Origin: an uncultured virus (IMG/VR IMGVR_UViG_3300028591_000018)
Taxonomy: Duplodnaviria > Heunggongvirae > Uroviricota > Caudoviricetes
Virus record (IMG/VR): IMGVR_UViG_3300028591_000018
Direction: 5' to 3' (one strand)
DNA: 64,000 nt
Below the pieces are notes generated by a model. That model was not told the origin of the DNA. It made no database searches and saw nothing but the letters and a program-made list of their open reading frames with translations. Made by a program: the position numbers and the translations under genes. This document shows, piece after piece, positions 19,189 to 63,999 of the stretch. Positions within the stretch are counted from its first letter, which is position 1; each line of letters opens with the position of its first letter.

Positions 19189-21987
19189 CTAAATATTGCC
19201 GTTCTTCTGTTCTCTAACGTAATAAAGGACAGTAGAAACCGGAATATTCAAAGATTCTGCGATCTCGGCATTAGAATAACCGGAACGGCGCAGAGAAAAT
19301 AATCTCGTGATTTTTGTATTGCTGAGCCCTTTTTCGGACCGTGGCGTAGCATACTCACGGACGGTATTCGTATCAGTAGCATCTAATATTTGCTTCAGCA
19401 GCGAATCAGATATTGCGCCGGCCTGAATAGCGGTCCACTCTTTCGGCGTAATATTAATCTTATAGCGCTGGGCACCTACTTCAAGCCGTGCAGCAGTCAG
19501 AAATTGCTGAGCGTACTTTCCGCTCTGCTTCTTGTCATCCCGAAGCTCCGGGTTCTCTTTGTAAAGTGCCTGCATGCGCACATTGGCACGGCGCTGGGCT
19601 TCACGTTCACGGGGGGCATTCAATCTCGAGCTGCGCAATTTTTCTTTAAGTGAATCCACTTCATTCTTAAAAACTTTCGCGGCAGACGGACTGTACTCCA
19701 GGTTCGGTGTATTGTACTTGTACTCTTTGCGAGCCTGATTGGCAAGCGCCTTGAGCTGTGATGCGTAACGGGCATAGAGCAACTCGGTCGGGTTCTGCTT
19801 TTCAGAGACAAGTTCATAAGGATCATCGATCTCGAGCATGCGGAAGCTCTCCTGAGTGCGGGTCTTCTCTCGGCCCTTCTCATCAATATAGTGGGCATCA
19901 AAGGCTTCTTTCCAAACCTTCTTGCCTGTCTCCTCATCAACATCAAATTCTCCGCGCCGCTTGGCAACACGTTCAGGGCTCTTGGCACGGGTCACGATAG
20001 TACCGGATCCATAAACCCAGCGACCATCCTCATTGTAGTGGCCCTGATATTTGTCCTTAAGCTCCTGGATCTTGTTCTCTTCTTCAGACAGCTTGTAGTC
20101 AAGCTTGTGCTTCTTGGCGTCAATGACAACCATTGAATGCTTCACTGCACGGGCAACCTCATCATCCGGAGCACCGGCAAGGGTCATGTCCATAATAAGA
20201 TTCGTGATCTTGCCCATCTCCATGTCTGTACGCTGCATGTACTTCATACCGGGCCGTTCAGGATATGAGACTTCAGGATCGAACCCTTCAAGCTCTTTCA
20301 AATATTGTCGATGAGAGACCTGCACTTTAGAGGATAATGGAATGACCATGACTGTGTCACCATCAAAATCAGCGCCGGACAGCTGCTTGGCTGTCTCTGC
20401 ATTAATACCGACTGCATCGGTCGGATTTTTAGTCAGCATAGAAATTCCTTCACGGTTCTTGTTGTTCACCGTAAGGACCGGGATCTCAAAAATTCCTCCA
20501 TGAGGGTAACGGACAAGCGCAACCTTCTCGCCATCCTTAAAGTTAGGAGCATAAATTTGGTCGTTCTTCATGCTCTTGATTGGAATAATGACCTGATAGC
20601 GCTGACGCGGAAGAGCTGCCGCATCCAGATGAACTGCAGTCGAGTCACAGTCTTCAGCAAAGGTTTCTAATAATCGGCGCTTGACGGTCGGATTTGTTAA
20701 ATTACAAATATCCTCGTACTCGGCCATCTTGTCTGCAATTGACAAATCAAGCTGATTTTTTACCAGCTTAATATTCTGCTTGGACAAAAATTGGGAAGGC
20801 AAAGATTTTGACCAGTCATTCCAGTCCCCTTCATCAGCACGTTTATTAATAAGCGATAATTTCCGTTCACCGGTCTTTGAGTCAATATAGTGGCTCTGGC
20901 CTTTTGCAGAAATATAGGAACCGAAGGGATTCATCGGATCATCAGTCTTAATATCCTTAAACGGGTCTTCGCCTTTCTCACGAGATTTTCGGGAATTGTA
21001 AATAATGTCATACCCATCCGGAATATCGTCGGAATATACTGCCATCCCTTTCATATATTTCTTTCCGTCCACTAAAATTCGGACTTGAGAATATCGGGAA
21101 CCGCCAAGTGATAAATCCTCCACACCGGGGCGAATTTGAATAAGGCCGTCACGCTGGTCACCGCCGTCTTCAATATATTTGACTAAAATACGTTTGCTGT
21201 CCATAGAAGCAGGATATTCAAATTTGTCAAATTTTTCTCCGCTTCCATCCTGAGAAGCATATTCAAATAATGGATTAATTTCTCCATACTGATATGCCTG
21301 ATTCTTCGGGGATCCGGGAGGACATAAAACCTTCAATGTCGTCCGCTGCCCATGTTCATTTGTAACCTGAGGCATGGAACCTACACGAACTTCATATCCT
21401 TCTTTCTTTAAAATATCGACAGCCTGTGTAAGCTTCTCTTTGGAAATATTCAATTCCCGATTTACTTCCGCGCCCACGTCGACCGGACCTTTTTCATCAA
21501 CTACTTTTTTCAAAAAATCAGCTGTCTGCTGCGCTTTATTCGCACGGCGCTGACGCTGCTTGTCAATAATTGAACGAAATGTTGATTCCGGAATACCCAT
21601 ACGCCGAGCTGCCTCGGTTTGAGATACTCCGTCTTTAATTAATTGGTTGGCCCATTGAATTCTGTATGCAGAAATATCGTTGTTTGATCTGCGGATCTCT
21701 GCACGAAGTTCAGATGTAGTAGAATATCCGCACTTCTTCGCGATCTCGATCTCAGAATATCCCTTGCGGCGCATCTTGCGCACACGGTTCAAAAAATCGA
21801 GTTCATGCTGAAAAGGAACTTCACCGGATCCCCAAGGGTATCGCCCTGAGTGTCTCTTTGTTCCGTAATGGGCGAAAAAATCCTTGTCTGCTTCCGGTGC
21901 GGCAACCGAAAGTAAAATATCCTGTGCAATGTCATTGTCAAGATTCATTGCCAGTGTAAACAAAATATTCTTTGCGATGCCGTTCAT
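19189..21987 (-). CDS. Single-chain two-barrel RNA polymerase (YonO/QDE-1-like) with HTH domains
   Basis: GADFDGD (DFDGD at 20356-20370), RYPH, DGLIQI/SQVR/MKG, VVIDAKK; HTH-like segments at both ends. Confidence 0.8.
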   Translation of the reverse strand: MNGIAKNILFTLAMNLDNDIAQDILLSVAAPEADKDFFAHYGTKRHSGRYPWGSGEVPFQHELDFLNRVRKMRRKGYSEIEIAKKCGYSTTSELRAEIRRSNNDISAYRIQWANQLIKDGVSQTEAARRMGIPESTFRSIIDKQRQRRANKAQQTADFLKKVVDEKGPVDVGAEVNRELNISKEKLTQAVDILKKEGYEVRVGSMPQVTNEHGQRTTLKVLCPPGSPKNQAYQYGEINPLFEYASQDGSGEKFDKFEYPASMDSKRILVKYIEDGGDQRDGLIQIRPGVEDLSLGGSRYSQVRILVDGKKYMKGMAVYSDDIPDGYDIIYNSRKSREKGEDPFKDIKTDDPMNPFGSYISAKGQSHYIDSKTGERKLSLINKRADEGDWNDWSKSLPSQFLSKQNIKLVKNQLDLSIADKMAEYEDICNLTNPTVKRRLLETFAEDCDSTAVHLDAAALPRQRYQVIIPIKSMKNDQIYAPNFKDGEKVALVRYPHGGIFEIPVLTVNNKNREGISMLTKNPTDAVGINAETAKQLSGADFDGDTVMVIPLSSKVQVSHRQYLKELEGFDPEVSYPERPGMKYMQRTDMEMGKITNLIMDMTLAGAPDDEVARAVKHSMVVIDAKKHKLDYKLSEEENKIQELKDKYQGHYNEDGRWVYGSGTIVTRAKSPERVAKRRGEFDVDEETGKKVWKEAFDAHYIDEKGREKTRTQESFRMLEIDDPYELVSEKQNPTELLYARYASQLKALANQARKEYKYNTPNLEYSPSAAKVFKNEVDSLKEKLRSSRLNAPREREAQRRANVRMQALYKENPELRDDKKQSGKYAQQFLTAARLEVGAQRYKINITPKEWTAIQAGAISDSLLKQILDATDTNTVREYATPRSEKGLSNTKITRLFSLRRSGYSNAEIAESLNIPVSTVLYYVREQKNGNI

Positions 21988-34303: not shown

Positions 34304-34329
34304 ACTATAGCACATGTTTTTTTCGCGAA
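34302..34329 (-). promoter_or_regulatory. Phage promoter motif copy 4
   Basis: TTCGCG-AAAAAAACATGTGC-TATAGT-G. Confidence 0.7.
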
Positions 34330-35804: not shown

Positions 35805-35832
35805 CCATAAAAGAGGTTGCGGATATCGCGAT
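35805..35832 (-). promoter_or_regulatory. Phage promoter motif copy 8
   Basis: ATCGCG-ATATCCGCAACCTC-TTTTAT-G. Confidence 0.7.
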
Positions 35833-58494: not shown

Positions 58495-58827
58495 TCAGTC
58501 AGATTCATATCCTCTTTCTATCAGTTCAAGAATTGCATAATTTGCAATATCTTTCAAAGTATCTTCGATGCTTTCATCAGCAACATGCACATCGTGACTA
58601 CTATAAAGCCTTTTCAAACGATTGAGTTTATCGGTGAGACGATAGCAGATTGAATTCGGAAATTCCTTCCGAAGTTCCGCAAAACTGTCGCCATAATCTG
58701 CATTTTTCCGTTCATACAAATCTGTCAGTTCCTTACAGATTTTTTTATGCTTATTAACCTTATTATGTTGTTTACCCATTTCCATTAATTCATCACAGTA
58801 TTTTTTATCATATTCGGTGGTATTCAT
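58495..58827 (-). CDS. DUF1599 / nucleotide-modification-associated domain protein
   Basis: KNADYGDSF, RLTDKLNRL, ESIEDTLKDIANYAIL. Confidence 0.8.
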   Translation of the reverse strand: MNTTEYDKKYCDELMEMGKQHNKVNKHKKICKELTDLYERKNADYGDSFAELRKEFPNSICYRLTDKLNRLKRLYSSHDVHVADESIEDTLKDIANYAILELIERGYESD

Positions 58828-59211
58828 TTTTTCCTCCTCCATTTTGAATGCCCTATTAATGCCGAAACGGTTACTGCTTGTTCTATAATATTCACAAATC
58901 ACATTAAAACACATAGCCAAGCTCCACCAATCCACTGATAATATCATCCAAATGCTCATCTGCAAGCCGTTGAATGGCTCCGCGCATTCGTTCCGGGTCT
59001 TTTTCCATTAAACATTCATACAATTTATTACATAGCCATGCTTTTTCATAGCAATCAATAATCTTCCGGTTAGCTTGTTTTTCCGGTTGATATACCGCAC
59101 GGGAATATGATCCTCTGAGGCCCTTCACAAGCTTCTCGGTAAGCACCACATTGTACTCGTTGATTCGTTGATTTGTGATCGGATTTACTTCATCAACCAT
59201 ATAGATTTTTC

Positions 59212-59535
59212 TCATTTTTTCTGATCCTTTTCATATTGTCGTTTGAAGAATTCAAAAGCCTTGTCGACCGTAAGATAACCGACTACTTCATCACCATATT
59301 CTTCTTCTGTAATATCAAAACCCATCGCTTCCAGAAGTCCGTACTCATGACCATATGAACCCATATTGCACACAACATCCCCACATCCAGGCTTCCTAAG
59401 TTCCCATTTTCCATCTGAGGAATACCGGATCTGTCCGCCAAATATTGGATTATCATCACATAAGAATTCATGCGGAATTCCGGCGATTTCAAGTTCTTCA
59501 TGCAATTTCTGTAACGGTTTAATTAAATCTGTCAT
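59212..59535 (-). CDS. Hypothetical protein
   Basis: MTDLIKP with GGAGG RBS; GSYGHEYGLLEAMG..VVGYLT. Confidence 0.7.
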   Translation of the reverse strand: MTDLIKPLQKLHEELEIAGIPHEFLCDDNPIFGGQIRYSSDGKWELRKPGCGDVVCNMGSYGHEYGLLEAMGFDITEEEYGDEVVGYLTVDKAFEFFKRQYEKDQKK

Positions 59536-59559
59536 TTTACCTCCAATAAGATCCAATAG

Positions 59560-59658
59560 AAAAAAAATAAAAGAAGTTGAACCGAATCGAACGGTTCCAG
59601 GCGGGCAGACAAGACCCGTCGCCCACTCACAAACTTTCGTTTGCTTTAACTTCTTCTC
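59560..59658 (-). ncRNA. tRNA-like small RNA (non-canonical)
   Basis: 8-bp closing stem, GAAA-tetraloop arm, central arm and GAACCG-TTCGATT-CGGTTC T-arm; own promoter (copy 12, 59657-59684) and T tract. Confidence 0.65.
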
Positions 59659-59683
59659 ATTAAAGTCCATGTTAATATTGCGT

Positions 59684-59826
59684 AAAAAATAGCAGGAGAT
59701 GTGTTAACTATAAACTCTACCTGTTGTGCAGCTATCTCACAACAGCAACTTTATAGCAACGGATATCTCCTGCTTAATTTAATGCCAGCTCATTTTTTCT
59801 CCTTTCTTTAAGTGAACTAGCTCCTA
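59684..59826 (-). ncRNA. Small RNA with SD and MSWH minigene (59779-59793)
   Basis: Promoter copy 13 at 59823-59850; AAAGGAG-AAAAA-ATG AGC TGG CAT TAA; long AGCAGGAGAT/ATCTCCTGCT terminator stem. Confidence 0.65.
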
Positions 59827-59848
59827 TTTAGACTATGTTTTTCATGCG

Positions 59849-59954
59849 AAAATAAATAGGAGAAGCGCCTGCAATTAACGCTTCTCCTTTCAAATAATTA
59901 ATAATATTTGTACAGTGCTAGGTCATTTTTCCTCCTTCCTATTGCACTCTCATC
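59849..59954 (-). ncRNA. Small RNA with SD and MT minigene (59918-59926)
   Basis: Promoter copy 14 at 59953-59980; AAGGAGG-AAAA-ATG ACC TAG; AGGAGAAGCG/CGCTTCTCCT terminator. Confidence 0.65.
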
Positions 59955-59979
59955 ATTATAGAAGATGTTTTTTTCGCGG

Positions 59980-60071
59980 AAAAAATAAGAGCCTTTGCAA
60001 CGACTCTTATTTTTAATAAATATCTTTGCACCTCCTTTCTTCATAGGAACCTGCTTTCGGGTATGCAGGTC
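59980..60071 (-). ncRNA. Small RNA with orphan SD
   Basis: Promoter copy 15 at 60070-60097 (TTCGCA-N14-TATAAT); ACCTGC/GCAGGT hairpin; AAAGGAGGTG; AAAAATAAGAG/CTCTTATTTTT terminator. Confidence 0.6.
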
Positions 60072-60097
60072 ATTATAGAGAATGTAAATCTTGCGAA

Positions 60098-60514
60098 TTA
60101 TTTCCGCAATTTCGAGAGGATCCAGAAAAATCTTCGAAAGCTTTCATAATACGTTTCCTTACAGCAGGGAACGTCCATACGAGCCGTCAGGTATTCATAG
60201 GAAATTCCTTCTGTGACTCCTTTGAAAATATAATTTCCCAAATCCTCCGAACAAGCTTTTGCCGCCTTATCAACCATATCCAGATGGTCTGTCAGCAATT
60301 CCCGCCGCAGCACAGCCGTAAGAACCGGATCACTCGGCCCCGCGGATTTTCCAATTTTTTCGGAATACGGCGATCCCATCAGGCTGATCATTTTCAGCTC
60401 TTCCTTCCATTCCGGATACTGAAGGCAAAAATGCTTCAGCTCATAAAACCGATGTCTGCTGATCCAGTATGAACTGCGCTTTGAGATCTCAGGACGAATA
60501 TTGGTACCCATCAC
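60098..60514 (-). CDS. Putative transcriptional regulator (RinA/ArpU-like)
   Basis: ELKHFCLQY.EW..DPV..A; C-terminal HTH-like ISYEYL..TYYESFRRFFW. Confidence 0.5.
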   Translation of the reverse strand: MMGTNIRPEISKRSSYWISRHRFYELKHFCLQYPEWKEELKMISLMGSPYSEKIGKSAGPSDPVLTAVLRRELLTDHLDMVDKAAKACSEDLGNYIFKGVTEGISYEYLTARMDVPCCKETYYESFRRFFWILSKLRK

Positions 60515-60753
60515 CGCTCTCCCTTCCAGACAAAGCCTGTATGCTCGAAAAGCAGTTTGGGCGAAATATAATAATTGATCCGCCCGTATTTGCTGTTCAT
60601 TTCCTCAATAGAGGTGACCAGTTTGCCGTTCCGTGTTGCGTTCCCGATAGGTAGCCATCCACAGATCAAACCGGCCCGCACCCAGCACGCATCCTTCCCG
60701 TACGCCCGCGCTGCCACGGACACCGGTACATTACCGTTAGAATACTCTTCCAT
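60511..60753 (-). CDS. Small winged-HTH / excisionase-like protein
   Basis: VPVSVAARAYGKDACWVRAGL..LPIG..YYISP. Confidence 0.55.
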   Translation of the reverse strand: MEEYSNGNVPVSVAARAYGKDACWVRAGLICGWLPIGNATRNGKLVTSIEEMNSKYGRINYYISPKLLFEHTGFVWKGER

Positions 60754-60836
60754 AAATTTCTCCTTTCGTGAGTCTTCTATCTCCGAAACTTATTCTATGA
60801 TAGCCAGGCGTAATCTAAAATAAAAACTTATGTTGA

Positions 60837-60890
60837 AAAAATAAAAGGAGTTGTAAAAATAAAAGGAGTTGTAAAAATAAAAGCCCTTGT
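60837..60890. repeat. 18-bp tandem repeat (2 exact copies and 1 variant)
   Basis: AAAAATAAAAGGAGTTGT twice, then AAAAATAAAAGCCCTTGT. Confidence 0.85.
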
Positions 60891-60908
60891 GGGGCTCAAC
60901 TTCCTTTC

Positions 60909-62655: not shown

Positions 62656-62778
62656 ATTTTTTTTCTCCTTTTTAAAAATAAAGAGCAGATCATTTATGTC
62701 TGCTCAATAAAGGCGTTGTAAAAACCGCGATTATAAATTGTAGGAGTATAATAACTTCTACAAGGAGAAAAAATATCA

Positions 62779-63999
62779 ATGCTGATAAAGTGTCCGGAAT
62801 GTGAACTGTCAGTGAGTGATAAAGCCATTATATGCCCTCACTGCGGCTATCCTTTAAAGCCCGAAGCGAAGAATATCAATTACCGATCCACCAGAAGGAA
62901 GCGCCTTCCGAATGGTTTTGGGCAAATATCAAAGATCAAAGGGGCGAACCTTCGTAAACCTTTCCGAGCCATGGTCACGATCGGAAAAACCGACGAAGGA
63001 AAACCCGTATGCCGATTATTACAGCCGGAAGCCTACTTCGAAACCTACAATGATGCTTATCAGGCATTAGTAAAATATAATAAAGATCCATATGTATTTA
63101 GCAATAATTTAACTGTTGGAGAGCTATACGAAAGATGGAGTGAATATCATTTTAAAACAATTTCTGCAGGTGCGGCGACAAACCTTGGAGCAGCCTGGAA
63201 ATACTGCAATTCCATCAAAAATATCAAACTTGTTGATCTGCGAAGTCGGCACATAAAGTATTGCATGGAAGAAGGAACTGTTACACTAAAAAACGGAAAT
63301 ATCAAACATCCCTCAGTAAACATGAAAAACGTGATTAAAGTCATGTTTAATCAAATGCTTGATTATGCTGTTGAATACGAATTGATCGATCGAAATTATG
63401 CCCGAAACTTCTCTGTATCAAAAGAAGACCGTAAAGAGATGGCAGAAAACCGTGAAAGCCATATCCCGTATACTGATGAAGAAATCGAAAAACTCTGGGA
63501 AAATATCAATTTCAATGAAGTTATAGGTATTATTCTGATTCAGTGCTATACCGGTTGGCGTCCGAAAGAACTTGAAATCATGAAAATCAGTGATATTGAC
63601 CTTGAACTTGGAACCATGAAAGGCGGTGTCAAAACCAGAGCCGGCAAAAATCGCATTGTACCGATCCACTCAAGAATCTATGATCTCATTAAAAAGTATT
63701 ATGAAGCCAGTAAAAAATCCGGCAGCGAATATCTTTTTACAATGACCGGCCGCAGCAAACTATTTTCCTACACGAAATTCGATTGGAACCTGAAACAAAT
63801 CAAGTCACAATTAAATCTAAACGACCGTCACCGTCCCCACGATGGTCGTGCGCACTTTATCACCCAGGCCAAAAAATATCACATGGATGAATACGCCATC
63901 AAACGAATCGTCGGACATGAAATCAAAGACCTAACCGAAAACGTCTACACCACCCGAGATCTCGAATGGCTAAAAGCCGAAATCGAAAAAATACCTTAA
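62779..63999 (+). CDS. int: Tyrosine integrase with N-terminal Zn ribbon
   Basis: TGWRPKEL (R), KT (K), HDGR (HxxR), VGH, VYT (Y); AAGGAG RBS. Confidence 0.92.
   Translation: MLIKCPECELSVSDKAIICPHCGYPLKPEAKNINYRSTRRKRLPNGFGQISKIKGANLRKPFRAMVTIGKTDEGKPVCRLLQPEAYFETYNDAYQALVKYNKDPYVFSNNLTVGELYERWSEYHFKTISAGAATNLGAAWKYCNSIKNIKLVDLRSRHIKYCMEEGTVTLKNGNIKHPSVNMKNVIKVMFNQMLDYAVEYELIDRNYARNFSVSKEDRKEMAENRESHIPYTDEEIEKLWENINFNEVIGIILIQCYTGWRPKELEIMKISDIDLELGTMKGGVKTRAGKNRIVPIHSRIYDLIKKYYEASKKSGSEYLFTMTGRSKLFSYTKFDWNLKQIKSQLNLNDRHRPHDGRAHFITQAKKYHMDEYAIKRIVGHEIKDLTENVYTTRDLEWLKAEIEKIP

Follow-up and report, generated by a model that had tools for sequence, protein, structure and literature searches.

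A predicted hairpin displays the ribosome-binding site of a two-codon frame in a small promoter-to-terminator unit of a ruminant-gut phage

Results

An array of four small units in the early region

The window, i.e. the whole stretch of 64,000 nucleotides that was analysed (IMG/VR record IMGVR_UViG_3300028591_000018), carries nearly all of its long ORFs on the minus strand. Matches to PHROG families identified a tape-measure protein, a portal, a large terminase and a head protease, together with a 1332-aa DNA polymerase/primase and an anaerobic ribonucleotide reductase; an integrase is encoded on the plus strand (62779-63999). A 932-aa protein (19189-21987, minus strand) matched a PHROG family labelled 'RNA-dependent RNA polymerase'. 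It contains at residue 540 the motif ADFDGD, which we take to be a mark of two-barrel RNA polymerases, and both of its ends gave helix-turn-helix (HTH) or sigma-region-4-like matches; no sequence relative was found among solved structures. Its nearest cultured relatives, about 44% identical, belong to phages of Arthrobacter, Gordonia, Streptomyces, Lactococcus and Faecalibacterium. Relatives at this level of identity are present in 250 phage records, where many are annotated merely as 'helix-turn-helix DNA-binding protein'. The contig that encodes the protein of the window is 84,899 bases long. The metagenome runs containing the window DNA come from sheep and goat gut, and related loci were found in assemblies of Lachnospiraceae, Ruminococcus and other Clostridia, which points to a large temperate phage of ruminant-gut Clostridia of about 85 kb.

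Four small units lie in tandem on the minus strand of the early region, between the genes 60098-60514 and 59212-59535, and each of them opens with the same 27-nt motif. Unit A (59985-60097) consists of the promoter motif, a 5′ hairpin, a 12-nt box AGAAAGGAGGUG without an ORF, and a terminator. The second is the MT unit, the subject of this study. The third, unit C or the MSWH unit (59686-59850), is conserved in the related loci L002, L003, L004, L082 and L084. In the fourth (unit T, 59555-59684), the promoter is followed by a cloverleaf-like (tRNA-like) RNA, whose closing stem runs into a series of U. The first gene past the array (59212-59535, minus strand) differs in each relative (compared with L002 and L004, 3343 onward) and hence looks like a variable cargo position.

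The tRNA-like RNA of the fourth unit has counterparts in L002 (3192-3310), L004 (3195-3310), L082 (1108-1235), L084 (1848-1960) and L198 (2785-2900), with 91-98% identity in these five relatives, and its fold has a z value of -4.06. It combines a canonical-looking T arm (loop UUCGAUU) with a closing stem of 9-10 bp, a minimal D arm and a non-canonical 'anticodon' arm; paired changes are seen in the T stem of L198, a Roseburia faecis locus. Neither ARAGORN nor Rfam called this RNA. Several tRNA genes of related phages carry the phage promoter and an extended closing stem (L066 3729-3806, L237 3973-4046 and L234 2455-2528). Rfam tRNA matches were also obtained at L066 5058-5145 and L062 3121-3189, and ARAGORN reported odd anticodon loops (4-letter or 2-letter 'anticodons') in three tRNA genes of related phages.

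Anatomy and predicted fold of the MT unit

The stretch flagged by the original prediction, 59849-59980, corresponds to the entire unit, from the first base of the promoter motif at 59980 to the U-rich tail of the terminator at 59848, and all its elements are on the minus strand. The 27-nt promoter motif (59954-59980) scores 27.4 bits in a position-weight matrix, and its position suggests that the transcript probably starts at or beside 59954. It is followed by a 5′ hairpin (59914-59948), in which the 5′ arm AGUGC-AA-UAGG (59948-59938) pairs with the 3′ arm CCUA-GCACU (59922-59914) to form 5 + 4 base pairs interrupted by an AA bulge and closing the 15-nt loop AAGGAGGAAAAAUGA (59937-59923). The Shine-Dalgarno (SD) sequence AAGGAGG (59931-59937) is unpaired in this loop, 4 nt upstream of the AUG and at around +18 to +24 from the predicted transcript start. 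The two-codon frame AUG ACC UAG occupies 59918-59926, with the AUG and the first base of ACC in the loop and the remainder in the 3′ arm. The same GGAGG-AAAA-AUG arrangement is found in real phage genes, in the units at 35832 and 26429.

An AU-rich spacer, together with the outer 3′ flank of the hairpin (59889-59913), leads to a second SD-like box, GAAAGGAG (59884-59891), which is preceded by AAUUAUUU and has no ORF after it. This box doubles as the 5′ strand of the stem of an intrinsic terminator (59848-59888), made of a 12-bp stem (59888-59858, 6 G-C pairs), a 7-nt loop and a U-rich tail, which is interrupted by an A and overlaps the next promoter. Hence, downstream of the frame there are just a 30-nt spacer and the terminator, and no message to protect. 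A promoter motif and a terminator are both present, the former as a motif match from which the start site is deduced, and this supports the proposal that MT is a stand-alone small RNA unit. We searched for a homologue with a long ORF, in which case the stop would have been a recent nonsense mutation, and found none; with the terminator 30 nt past the stop there is no space for one.

The minimum-energy fold of the unit calculated with ViennaRNA contains exactly the hairpin that had been described from the letters. Both the pairing of the two arms (59948-59914) and the AUG-ACC-UAG frame with its SD in the loop (AAGGAGG-N4-AUG within 15 nt) were thereby confirmed. The 101-nt unit folds at -30.9 kcal/mol (z = -4.34; none of 200 shuffles was as good), an energy that comes mostly from the terminator. 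The hairpin alone reaches -8.1 kcal/mol, compared with -3.27 ± 1.85 for shuffled sequences, 17 of 1000 being equally stable. Among the 62 SD+ATG sites of the minus strand, only three, MT included, place the SD and the A of the AUG together in a single hairpin loop with 7 or more closing pairs, and five, including MT and the neighbouring MSWH, are followed by frames of at most 5 codons.

Rfam gave no match in the window at the gathering threshold; at E ≤ 5 the matches to the unit were all sub-threshold and carried by the terminator (best rli43, 22 bits against a gathering score of 100). No tRNA was called in the window by ARAGORN. A 48-aa ORF (59898-60044, minus strand), which crosses the terminator of unit A and the MT promoter and has no SD box, was rejected by inspection. 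Contigs from RNA libraries cover 59309-59538 (X11, identical to the window) and 59967-60117 (X15); neither lies over the MT hairpin, and contigs cannot prove absence. Run X2 has no contig across 59898-59951. An antisense partner was also considered and rejected: RNAduplex calculations between MT RNA and units A, C and T or three start regions gave z values between -1.16 and +0.49 relative to shuffled sequences. Matches to the complement of the loop number 22 in the window where 6.7 are expected; 19 of them lie on the plus strand and represent RBSs belonging to other minus-strand genes rather than antisense partners.

The promoter motif is confined to the gene strand

The motif, of 27 nt, has a consensus of roughly TTCGCGAAATTTACA-N4/5-CTATAATG. 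Its matrix was derived from seven instances taken by coordinates and then refined iteratively with the window and four close loci. It matches 22 sites on the minus strand of the window (62731, 62399, 61828, 61399, 61159, 60097, 59980, 59850, 59684, 58140, 56557, 54009, 35900, 35832, 35524, 35304, 35141, 34329, 26429, 25804, 23098 and 3197) and none on the plus strand. At a threshold of at least 20 bits, the count is 19 against 0, with no match in any of five shuffled windows. Over 241 related loci (1.08 Mb), 483 matches fall on the gene strand and 3 on the other; five of these sequences had contributed to the training of the matrix, but the strand bias and the matches in the other loci are independent of the training. 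The half of the window that carries the structural genes has one weak copy (3197). As we read the motif, the spacing of its blocks is unlike that of a -35/-10 sigma-70 promoter, and a simple sigma-70 scan gave no excess (7 sites for 9.1 expected). We infer that the motif is read by a phage factor, and the HTH-flanked 932-aa polymerase is the obvious candidate. For YonO, the SPbeta enzyme, excerpts of one article describe the promoter as still to be determined in 2017 (PMC5467207).

The motif is usually followed by a 5′ hairpin, after which comes the RBS of a real gene. A leader hairpin directly follows the promoters at 62731, 61159, 58140, 56557, 54009 and 35524 of the window, and likewise those at 67 in L002, 432, 859 and 1289 in L004, and 170 and 1391 in L084. 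Its 6-bp stem occurs in four covarying versions, fully paired in 12 of 12 units, and its loop is of the type CA-N1-2-GGAUGA, which presumably resembles the CsrA SELEX site. Stretches led by a promoter but showing no obvious ORF were seen at 23098-23020 (a 5′ hairpin and a terminator), 34329-34210, 35304-35230 and 62399-62320, all on the minus strand, and G-AUG follows the promoter immediately in the units at 34329 and 59980. At 60800-60900 (minus strand), the 3′ half of the promoter motif (TTTTTACAACTCCTTTTATT), without the CGCG part, occurs twice in tandem between a terminator and the gene 60511-60753.

The arrangement of the promoters raises the possibility that the array acts in cis. Four tandem promoters with leaky terminators would then feed the promoter-less genes downstream, from 59535 to around 58400; MT would add one promoter, and its hairpin and SD would serve as a 5′ stabiliser of the read-through transcripts. 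Consistent with this, no motif is present between 59684 and 58140, so that the genes 59212-59535, 58904-59215 and 58495-58965 have no promoter of their own, the tail of the MT terminator is interrupted by its A, and in this phage a promoter is as a rule followed immediately by a 5′ hairpin. However, the MT terminator is strong on paper, three more terminators precede the first gene, the relatives do with one unit fewer, and the predicted MT fold showed no alternative antiterminator structure. We consider such a promoter stack improbable.

The MT unit is restricted to one phage lineage

The gene upstream of the array (PHROG 11237) has 699 relatives in the protein collection, 45 of which were used for an alignment, and 80 loci were fetched from each of three collections. 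Just five distinct loci among those fetched share the intergenic array (L083 and L003 being one contig), and all five lack the MT unit. L002 and L003 (72% and 71% protein identity) carry an A-like unit with the frame ATG AAA/AAG TAA, followed by an MSWH-type and a tRNA-like unit, an order also found in L004 (63%). The order is MSWH-type, A-type and tRNA-like in L082 (76%), while L084 (63%) has a hybrid MSWH-type unit (TTG GAC TAG), a cassette with a real 80-aa gene, an A-type and a tRNA-like unit.

BLAST of the MT unit against the whole records of L002, L003, L004 and L198 returned only matches of 14-19 nt (E ≥ 0.036); the unit is thus absent from two relatives rated complete, L002 (90,190 bp, with direct terminal repeats) and L004 (90,166 bp). 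No match was obtained by blastn against 50,697 phage records, nor in any of four exact scans of viral and genome contigs with 23-nt and 27-nt stretches of the hairpin. With blastn-short against 241 loci, the promoter and a generic RBS leader were matched and nothing else. Since the order of the array differs among relatives and MT is missing from them, we regard the region as a shuffling hot spot of promoter-to-terminator modules, to which MT is a lineage-specific addition.

The same data can be read in a neutral way. The unit would be debris of cassette shuffling, left after deletion of the ORFs, with one small gene contributing its promoter, RBS and first codons, another its leader and RBS, and a terminator at the end; whether transcribed or not, it would have no function, and the hairpin and the early stop would be incidental. 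Besides the restriction to one lineage, this is suggested by the variable order of the modules (A-MT-C-T in the window, C-A-T in L082, and C-like, gene, A, T in L084) and by the second SD-like box. Indeed, this box and its leader read AAUUAUUUGAAAGGAG, which is the generic gene leader and RBS in this group of phages and has exact matches of 19 nt with gene leaders of nine loci, here present as a further copy without an ORF. When the first 70 nt of the unit were compared with 541 other units, the best local matches, in L192 and L154, were to the leaders preceding a 138-aa gene (score 33; 99th percentile, 28). The 138-aa gene that owns this leader is present in 140 of 244 loci, but neither in the window nor in the five closest loci.

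A variant strain retains the core of the unit

Four of the 15 listed runs were compared, and the goat-gut run X3 provided the sole variant strain with an MT unit. Its 1822-nt contig over 59200-60162 is about 96% identical to the window, with 30 substitutions and 9 gaps; positions are listed for 25 of the substitutions and 7 of the gaps, and the other 5 and 2 could fall in parts that we describe as unchanged. MT is the fastest-changing piece of the array, with at least 10 differences per about 100 nt (59890, insertion; 59901; 59905; 59907; 59912; 59915, deletion; 59916; 59918; 59947, insertion; 59949), compared with 2 in the 165-nt MSWH unit (59702 and 59829). These listed MT differences concentrate in the outer stem and the spacer, those at 59915, 59916 and 59918 lying in the 3′ arm, and none of them falls in the 27-nt promoter, in the loop and inner stem (59919-59946) or in the 31-nt terminator. 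The start and the ACC codon are kept, and the stop TAG is changed to TAA (59918, C to T on the plus strand).

The X3 variant was rebuilt by applying the listed differences by coordinates, and was then folded. The 5′ 50 nt gave -9.4 kcal/mol as compared with -9.1 for the window, again with a hairpin around the RBS. However, 89 of 324 alternative sets of letters at the same places folded at least as well, showing that the retention of stability is not significant. Of the features that the original prediction would have relatives keep, the SD loop and an immediate in-frame stop persist in this one strain; compensatory change was not significantly supported. A kept core between changed flanks fits constraint, as judged from one strain with clustered differences and an incomplete list; the clustering may reflect a single recombination event. 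For the neutral reading, these results cut both ways: the highest divergence of the array and the non-significant compensation are as expected from debris, but a promoter, an RBS loop, a start, a stop function and a terminator that are unchanged among the listed differences, with changed sequence in between, are not.

MT and MSWH share a design

The proposal that the two neighbouring units are built alike was upheld, as both display the RBS in a loop. The MSWH unit has the same type of promoter, an RBS in the loop of the 5′ hairpin, a start at the junction of the loop with the 3′ arm, a tiny frame and similar letters around the start. In an alignment, the promoter and the RBS/start letters are in register while the 5′ arm and the 3′ domain are not. 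The 5′ arm of MT is not alignable, its pairing is offset by 3 nt, and MT has no counterpart of the structured 3′ domain of about 90 nt with a conserved inner hairpin. Moreover, MSWH is conserved in five relatives and MT in none of them. A covariance model of the MSWH-family hairpin (R1, six members; self-score of the window copy 53.1 bits) gave 32 matches at E ≤ 10, none of which falls in 59856-59980; ordinary gene RBSs scored 15-17 bits. MT and MSWH therefore share a design, and they are not demonstrably one family.

The ~90-nt 3′ domain of the MSWH type is found in the window (59690-59775, minus strand), L004 (3110-3195) and L082 (890-975); L002 and L003 have a different 3′ domain. In the ~90-nt domain, the inner hairpin carries a paired change (UGUUGUG/CACAACA versus UGUUGGG/CCCAACA), and the long outer stem around it doubles as terminator.

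The 9 predicted pairs of the MSWH-family hairpin are accompanied, in six sequences, by several one-sided changes that preserve pairing and by no two-sided change. The frame has 4 codons in the window, L082 and L003, 11 in L002 and 2 in L084, and in L004 it meets no stop before the terminator; the start codon is ATG, GTG or TTG. This variable length indicates that the peptide is not the conserved part, and makes the 'minigene' doubtful as a coding entity.

These observations bear on the idea that MT is a minigene of the lambda bar type. Its frame would be translated, and drop-off of fMet-Thr-tRNA or slow termination would damp host translation during phage development by tying up tRNA-Thr, a release factor or ribosomes. 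Excerpts of a study of toxic minigenes attribute their action to the accumulation of peptidyl-tRNA (PMC2490762). A strong SD, an optimal-looking start, one sense codon and a stop are indeed present at 59937-59918, and the stop is retained as TAA in X3. The same promoter also leads the two-codon frames of L002, L003 and L084 given above, and ATG AAT TAA in L004 (at 2079). However, the sense codon is different in every unit, and we estimate that an early stop is unremarkable in non-coding DNA of 37% G+C, where chance alone predicts it; furthermore, the frame length is unconserved in the MSWH family. The bar effect was seen in Pth-deficient E. coli, and toxicity is not known from hosts other than Pth-deficient ones. 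Although every part of a minigene is in place as originally proposed, an action of this kind appears unlikely for MT.

ORF-less units with strong SD boxes form a class

Among 441 distinct promoter-led units of the window and the loci, 44 reach a terminator in the first 200 nt or so and lack an SD-led ORF of 20 codons, as scored by a conservative detector that misses the MSWH family with its long terminator. Read by eye, 18 of the 44 contain a strong SD-like box, and the remaining 26 are mostly tRNA genes or other structured RNAs (read by eye and with tRNA calls). The unit A family (window 59985-60097, minus strand; L082 978-1108; L084 1257-1395 and 1728-1850) has the 12-nt box after the 5′ hairpin in the window, in L082 and in the first unit of L084, with no frame conserved. 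We take this box to be the full complement of the canonical 16S 3′ end. Its maintenance without a conserved frame speaks for a use of SD boxes at the RNA level.

On the other hand, the 5′ box and the terminator of promoter-SD-terminator units in L076, L132 and L200 recur in small-gene cassettes of L104 and L170. Read by eye, these units look like deletion remnants of small genes, which suggests that such units can also arise and persist by decay. These cassettes add to the case for a neutral remnant. Conversely, display of the RBS in a loop is uncommon and yet occurs in two adjacent tiny units, and the neighbouring ORF-less SD units are conserved across distances of 63-76% protein identity, neither of which is readily explained by debris. 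The original argument that a shared design speaks for selection rather than gene decay is thus borne out weakly at most: the unit is missing beyond one strain that is about 96% identical, its stability is not significantly retained, the MSWH covariance model misses it, and ORF-less units resembling deletion remnants are known from related phages.

Discussion

We tentatively favour the view that MT is a small RNA gene that is young and specific to its lineage and that works, if at all, by ribosome docking. The 27-nt phage promoter, probably read by the single-chain two-barrel RNA polymerase of the phage itself, would drive a transcript of about 100 nt ending at the intrinsic terminator. The 5′ hairpin would keep the RBS and the AUG single-stranded in its loop, allowing a 30S subunit to dock. 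Translation would advance by one codon before the UAG, and the active part would be the RNA and not the peptide. A docked ribosome could shield the RNA from 5′-to-3′ decay in the manner of strong SD boxes in Firmicutes, and abundant MT RNA could also hold back initiating ribosomes. In B. subtilis, according to excerpts of the hbs study, ribosomes bound at a strong SD block RNase J1 (PMC5737220). The unit may have originated in a recombination hot spot by the joining of cassette boundary modules, namely a promoter, an RBS with a start, a generic leader with its RBS, and a terminator.

Several observations favour the docking RNA. The unit is bracketed by a promoter motif and a terminator; its hairpin is part of the predicted minimum-energy fold and exceeds shuffled sequences in stability; the loop display of the RBS is rare, with a spacing to the AUG as in real phage genes; the listed changes of X3 spare the core and leave a start, ACC and an in-frame stop; SD-bearing units without ORF are conserved in relatives, as seen for the box of unit A and the MSWH hairpin and in 18 units of the class; and the phage encodes the ADFDGD protein with HTH ends. 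The docking RNA is weakened by the absence of MT from the five array loci, the two complete 90-kb relatives and the four exact-pattern scans, by its change, the fastest in the array, with clustered differences and no significant retention of stability, and by similar-looking deletion remnants in related phages. A neutral cassette remnant is accordingly a close rival, nearly as likely as the docking RNA. The MT unit occurs in this phage lineage only, and it may be no more than a recent by-product of cassette shuffling.

A bolder version, which we hold to be rather unlikely, is that MT and its neighbours form a phage battery of ribosome-docking mini-RNAs, i.e. SD decoys or minigenes, each with a phage-polymerase promoter and a terminator, which would load 30S/70S ribosomes of the host and, by translating one to a few codons, tie up ribosomes, tRNA or release factors, and to which the shuffling of cassette boundary modules would continually add new members such as MT. 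Such a device for host takeover or translation tuning would be undescribed for Firmicute phages, as far as the literature on the YonO promoter, phage minigenes and STAB-SD goes. If MT is instead a remnant, it offers an example of the recombination among promoter, RBS and terminator modules by which tiny transcription units are built and lost in this phage group. On the practical side, the promoter motif allows small RNA genes to be annotated in a large uncultured group of Clostridia phages.

Three known systems can be compared with MT. The decoy RNAs CsrB and RsmZ are small, terminator-ended RNAs with GGA-containing boxes in hairpin loops. MT likewise is a small unit ended by a terminator, with a GGA box displayed in a loop; it differs in having just one or two boxes, and the idea of a CsrA decoy was dropped as no CsrA domain was found in 94 phage ORFs scanned. 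The Firmicute 5′ stabilisers provide a second parallel. STAB-SD of B. thuringiensis cryIIIA is a ribosome-mediated 5′ stabiliser, and in STAB-SD and hbs, as in MT, a strong SD lies near the 5′ end and no real ORF is needed. These stabilisers protect a long downstream mRNA, whereas MT has a spacer and a terminator only.

The third comparison is with the lambda bar minigenes (barI/barII), reportedly described by Hernandez-Sanchez et al. in 1998. They are phage-borne as well, consist of an SD box, an AUG, one sense codon and a stop, and are the model for how a two-codon frame acts, through peptidyl-tRNA drop-off and tRNA starvation. The bar elements are not known to carry their own promoter or terminator or to lie in a hairpin loop. 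They have no sequence relation to MT, whose host is a Clostridia-type Firmicute. If the MT RNA is made and bound by ribosomes, it would represent a naturally occurring minigene or SD decoy of a phage, equipped with a promoter and a terminator of its own, and the conserved units next to it would offer a built-in comparison set for function, a question that the lambda bar elements left open.
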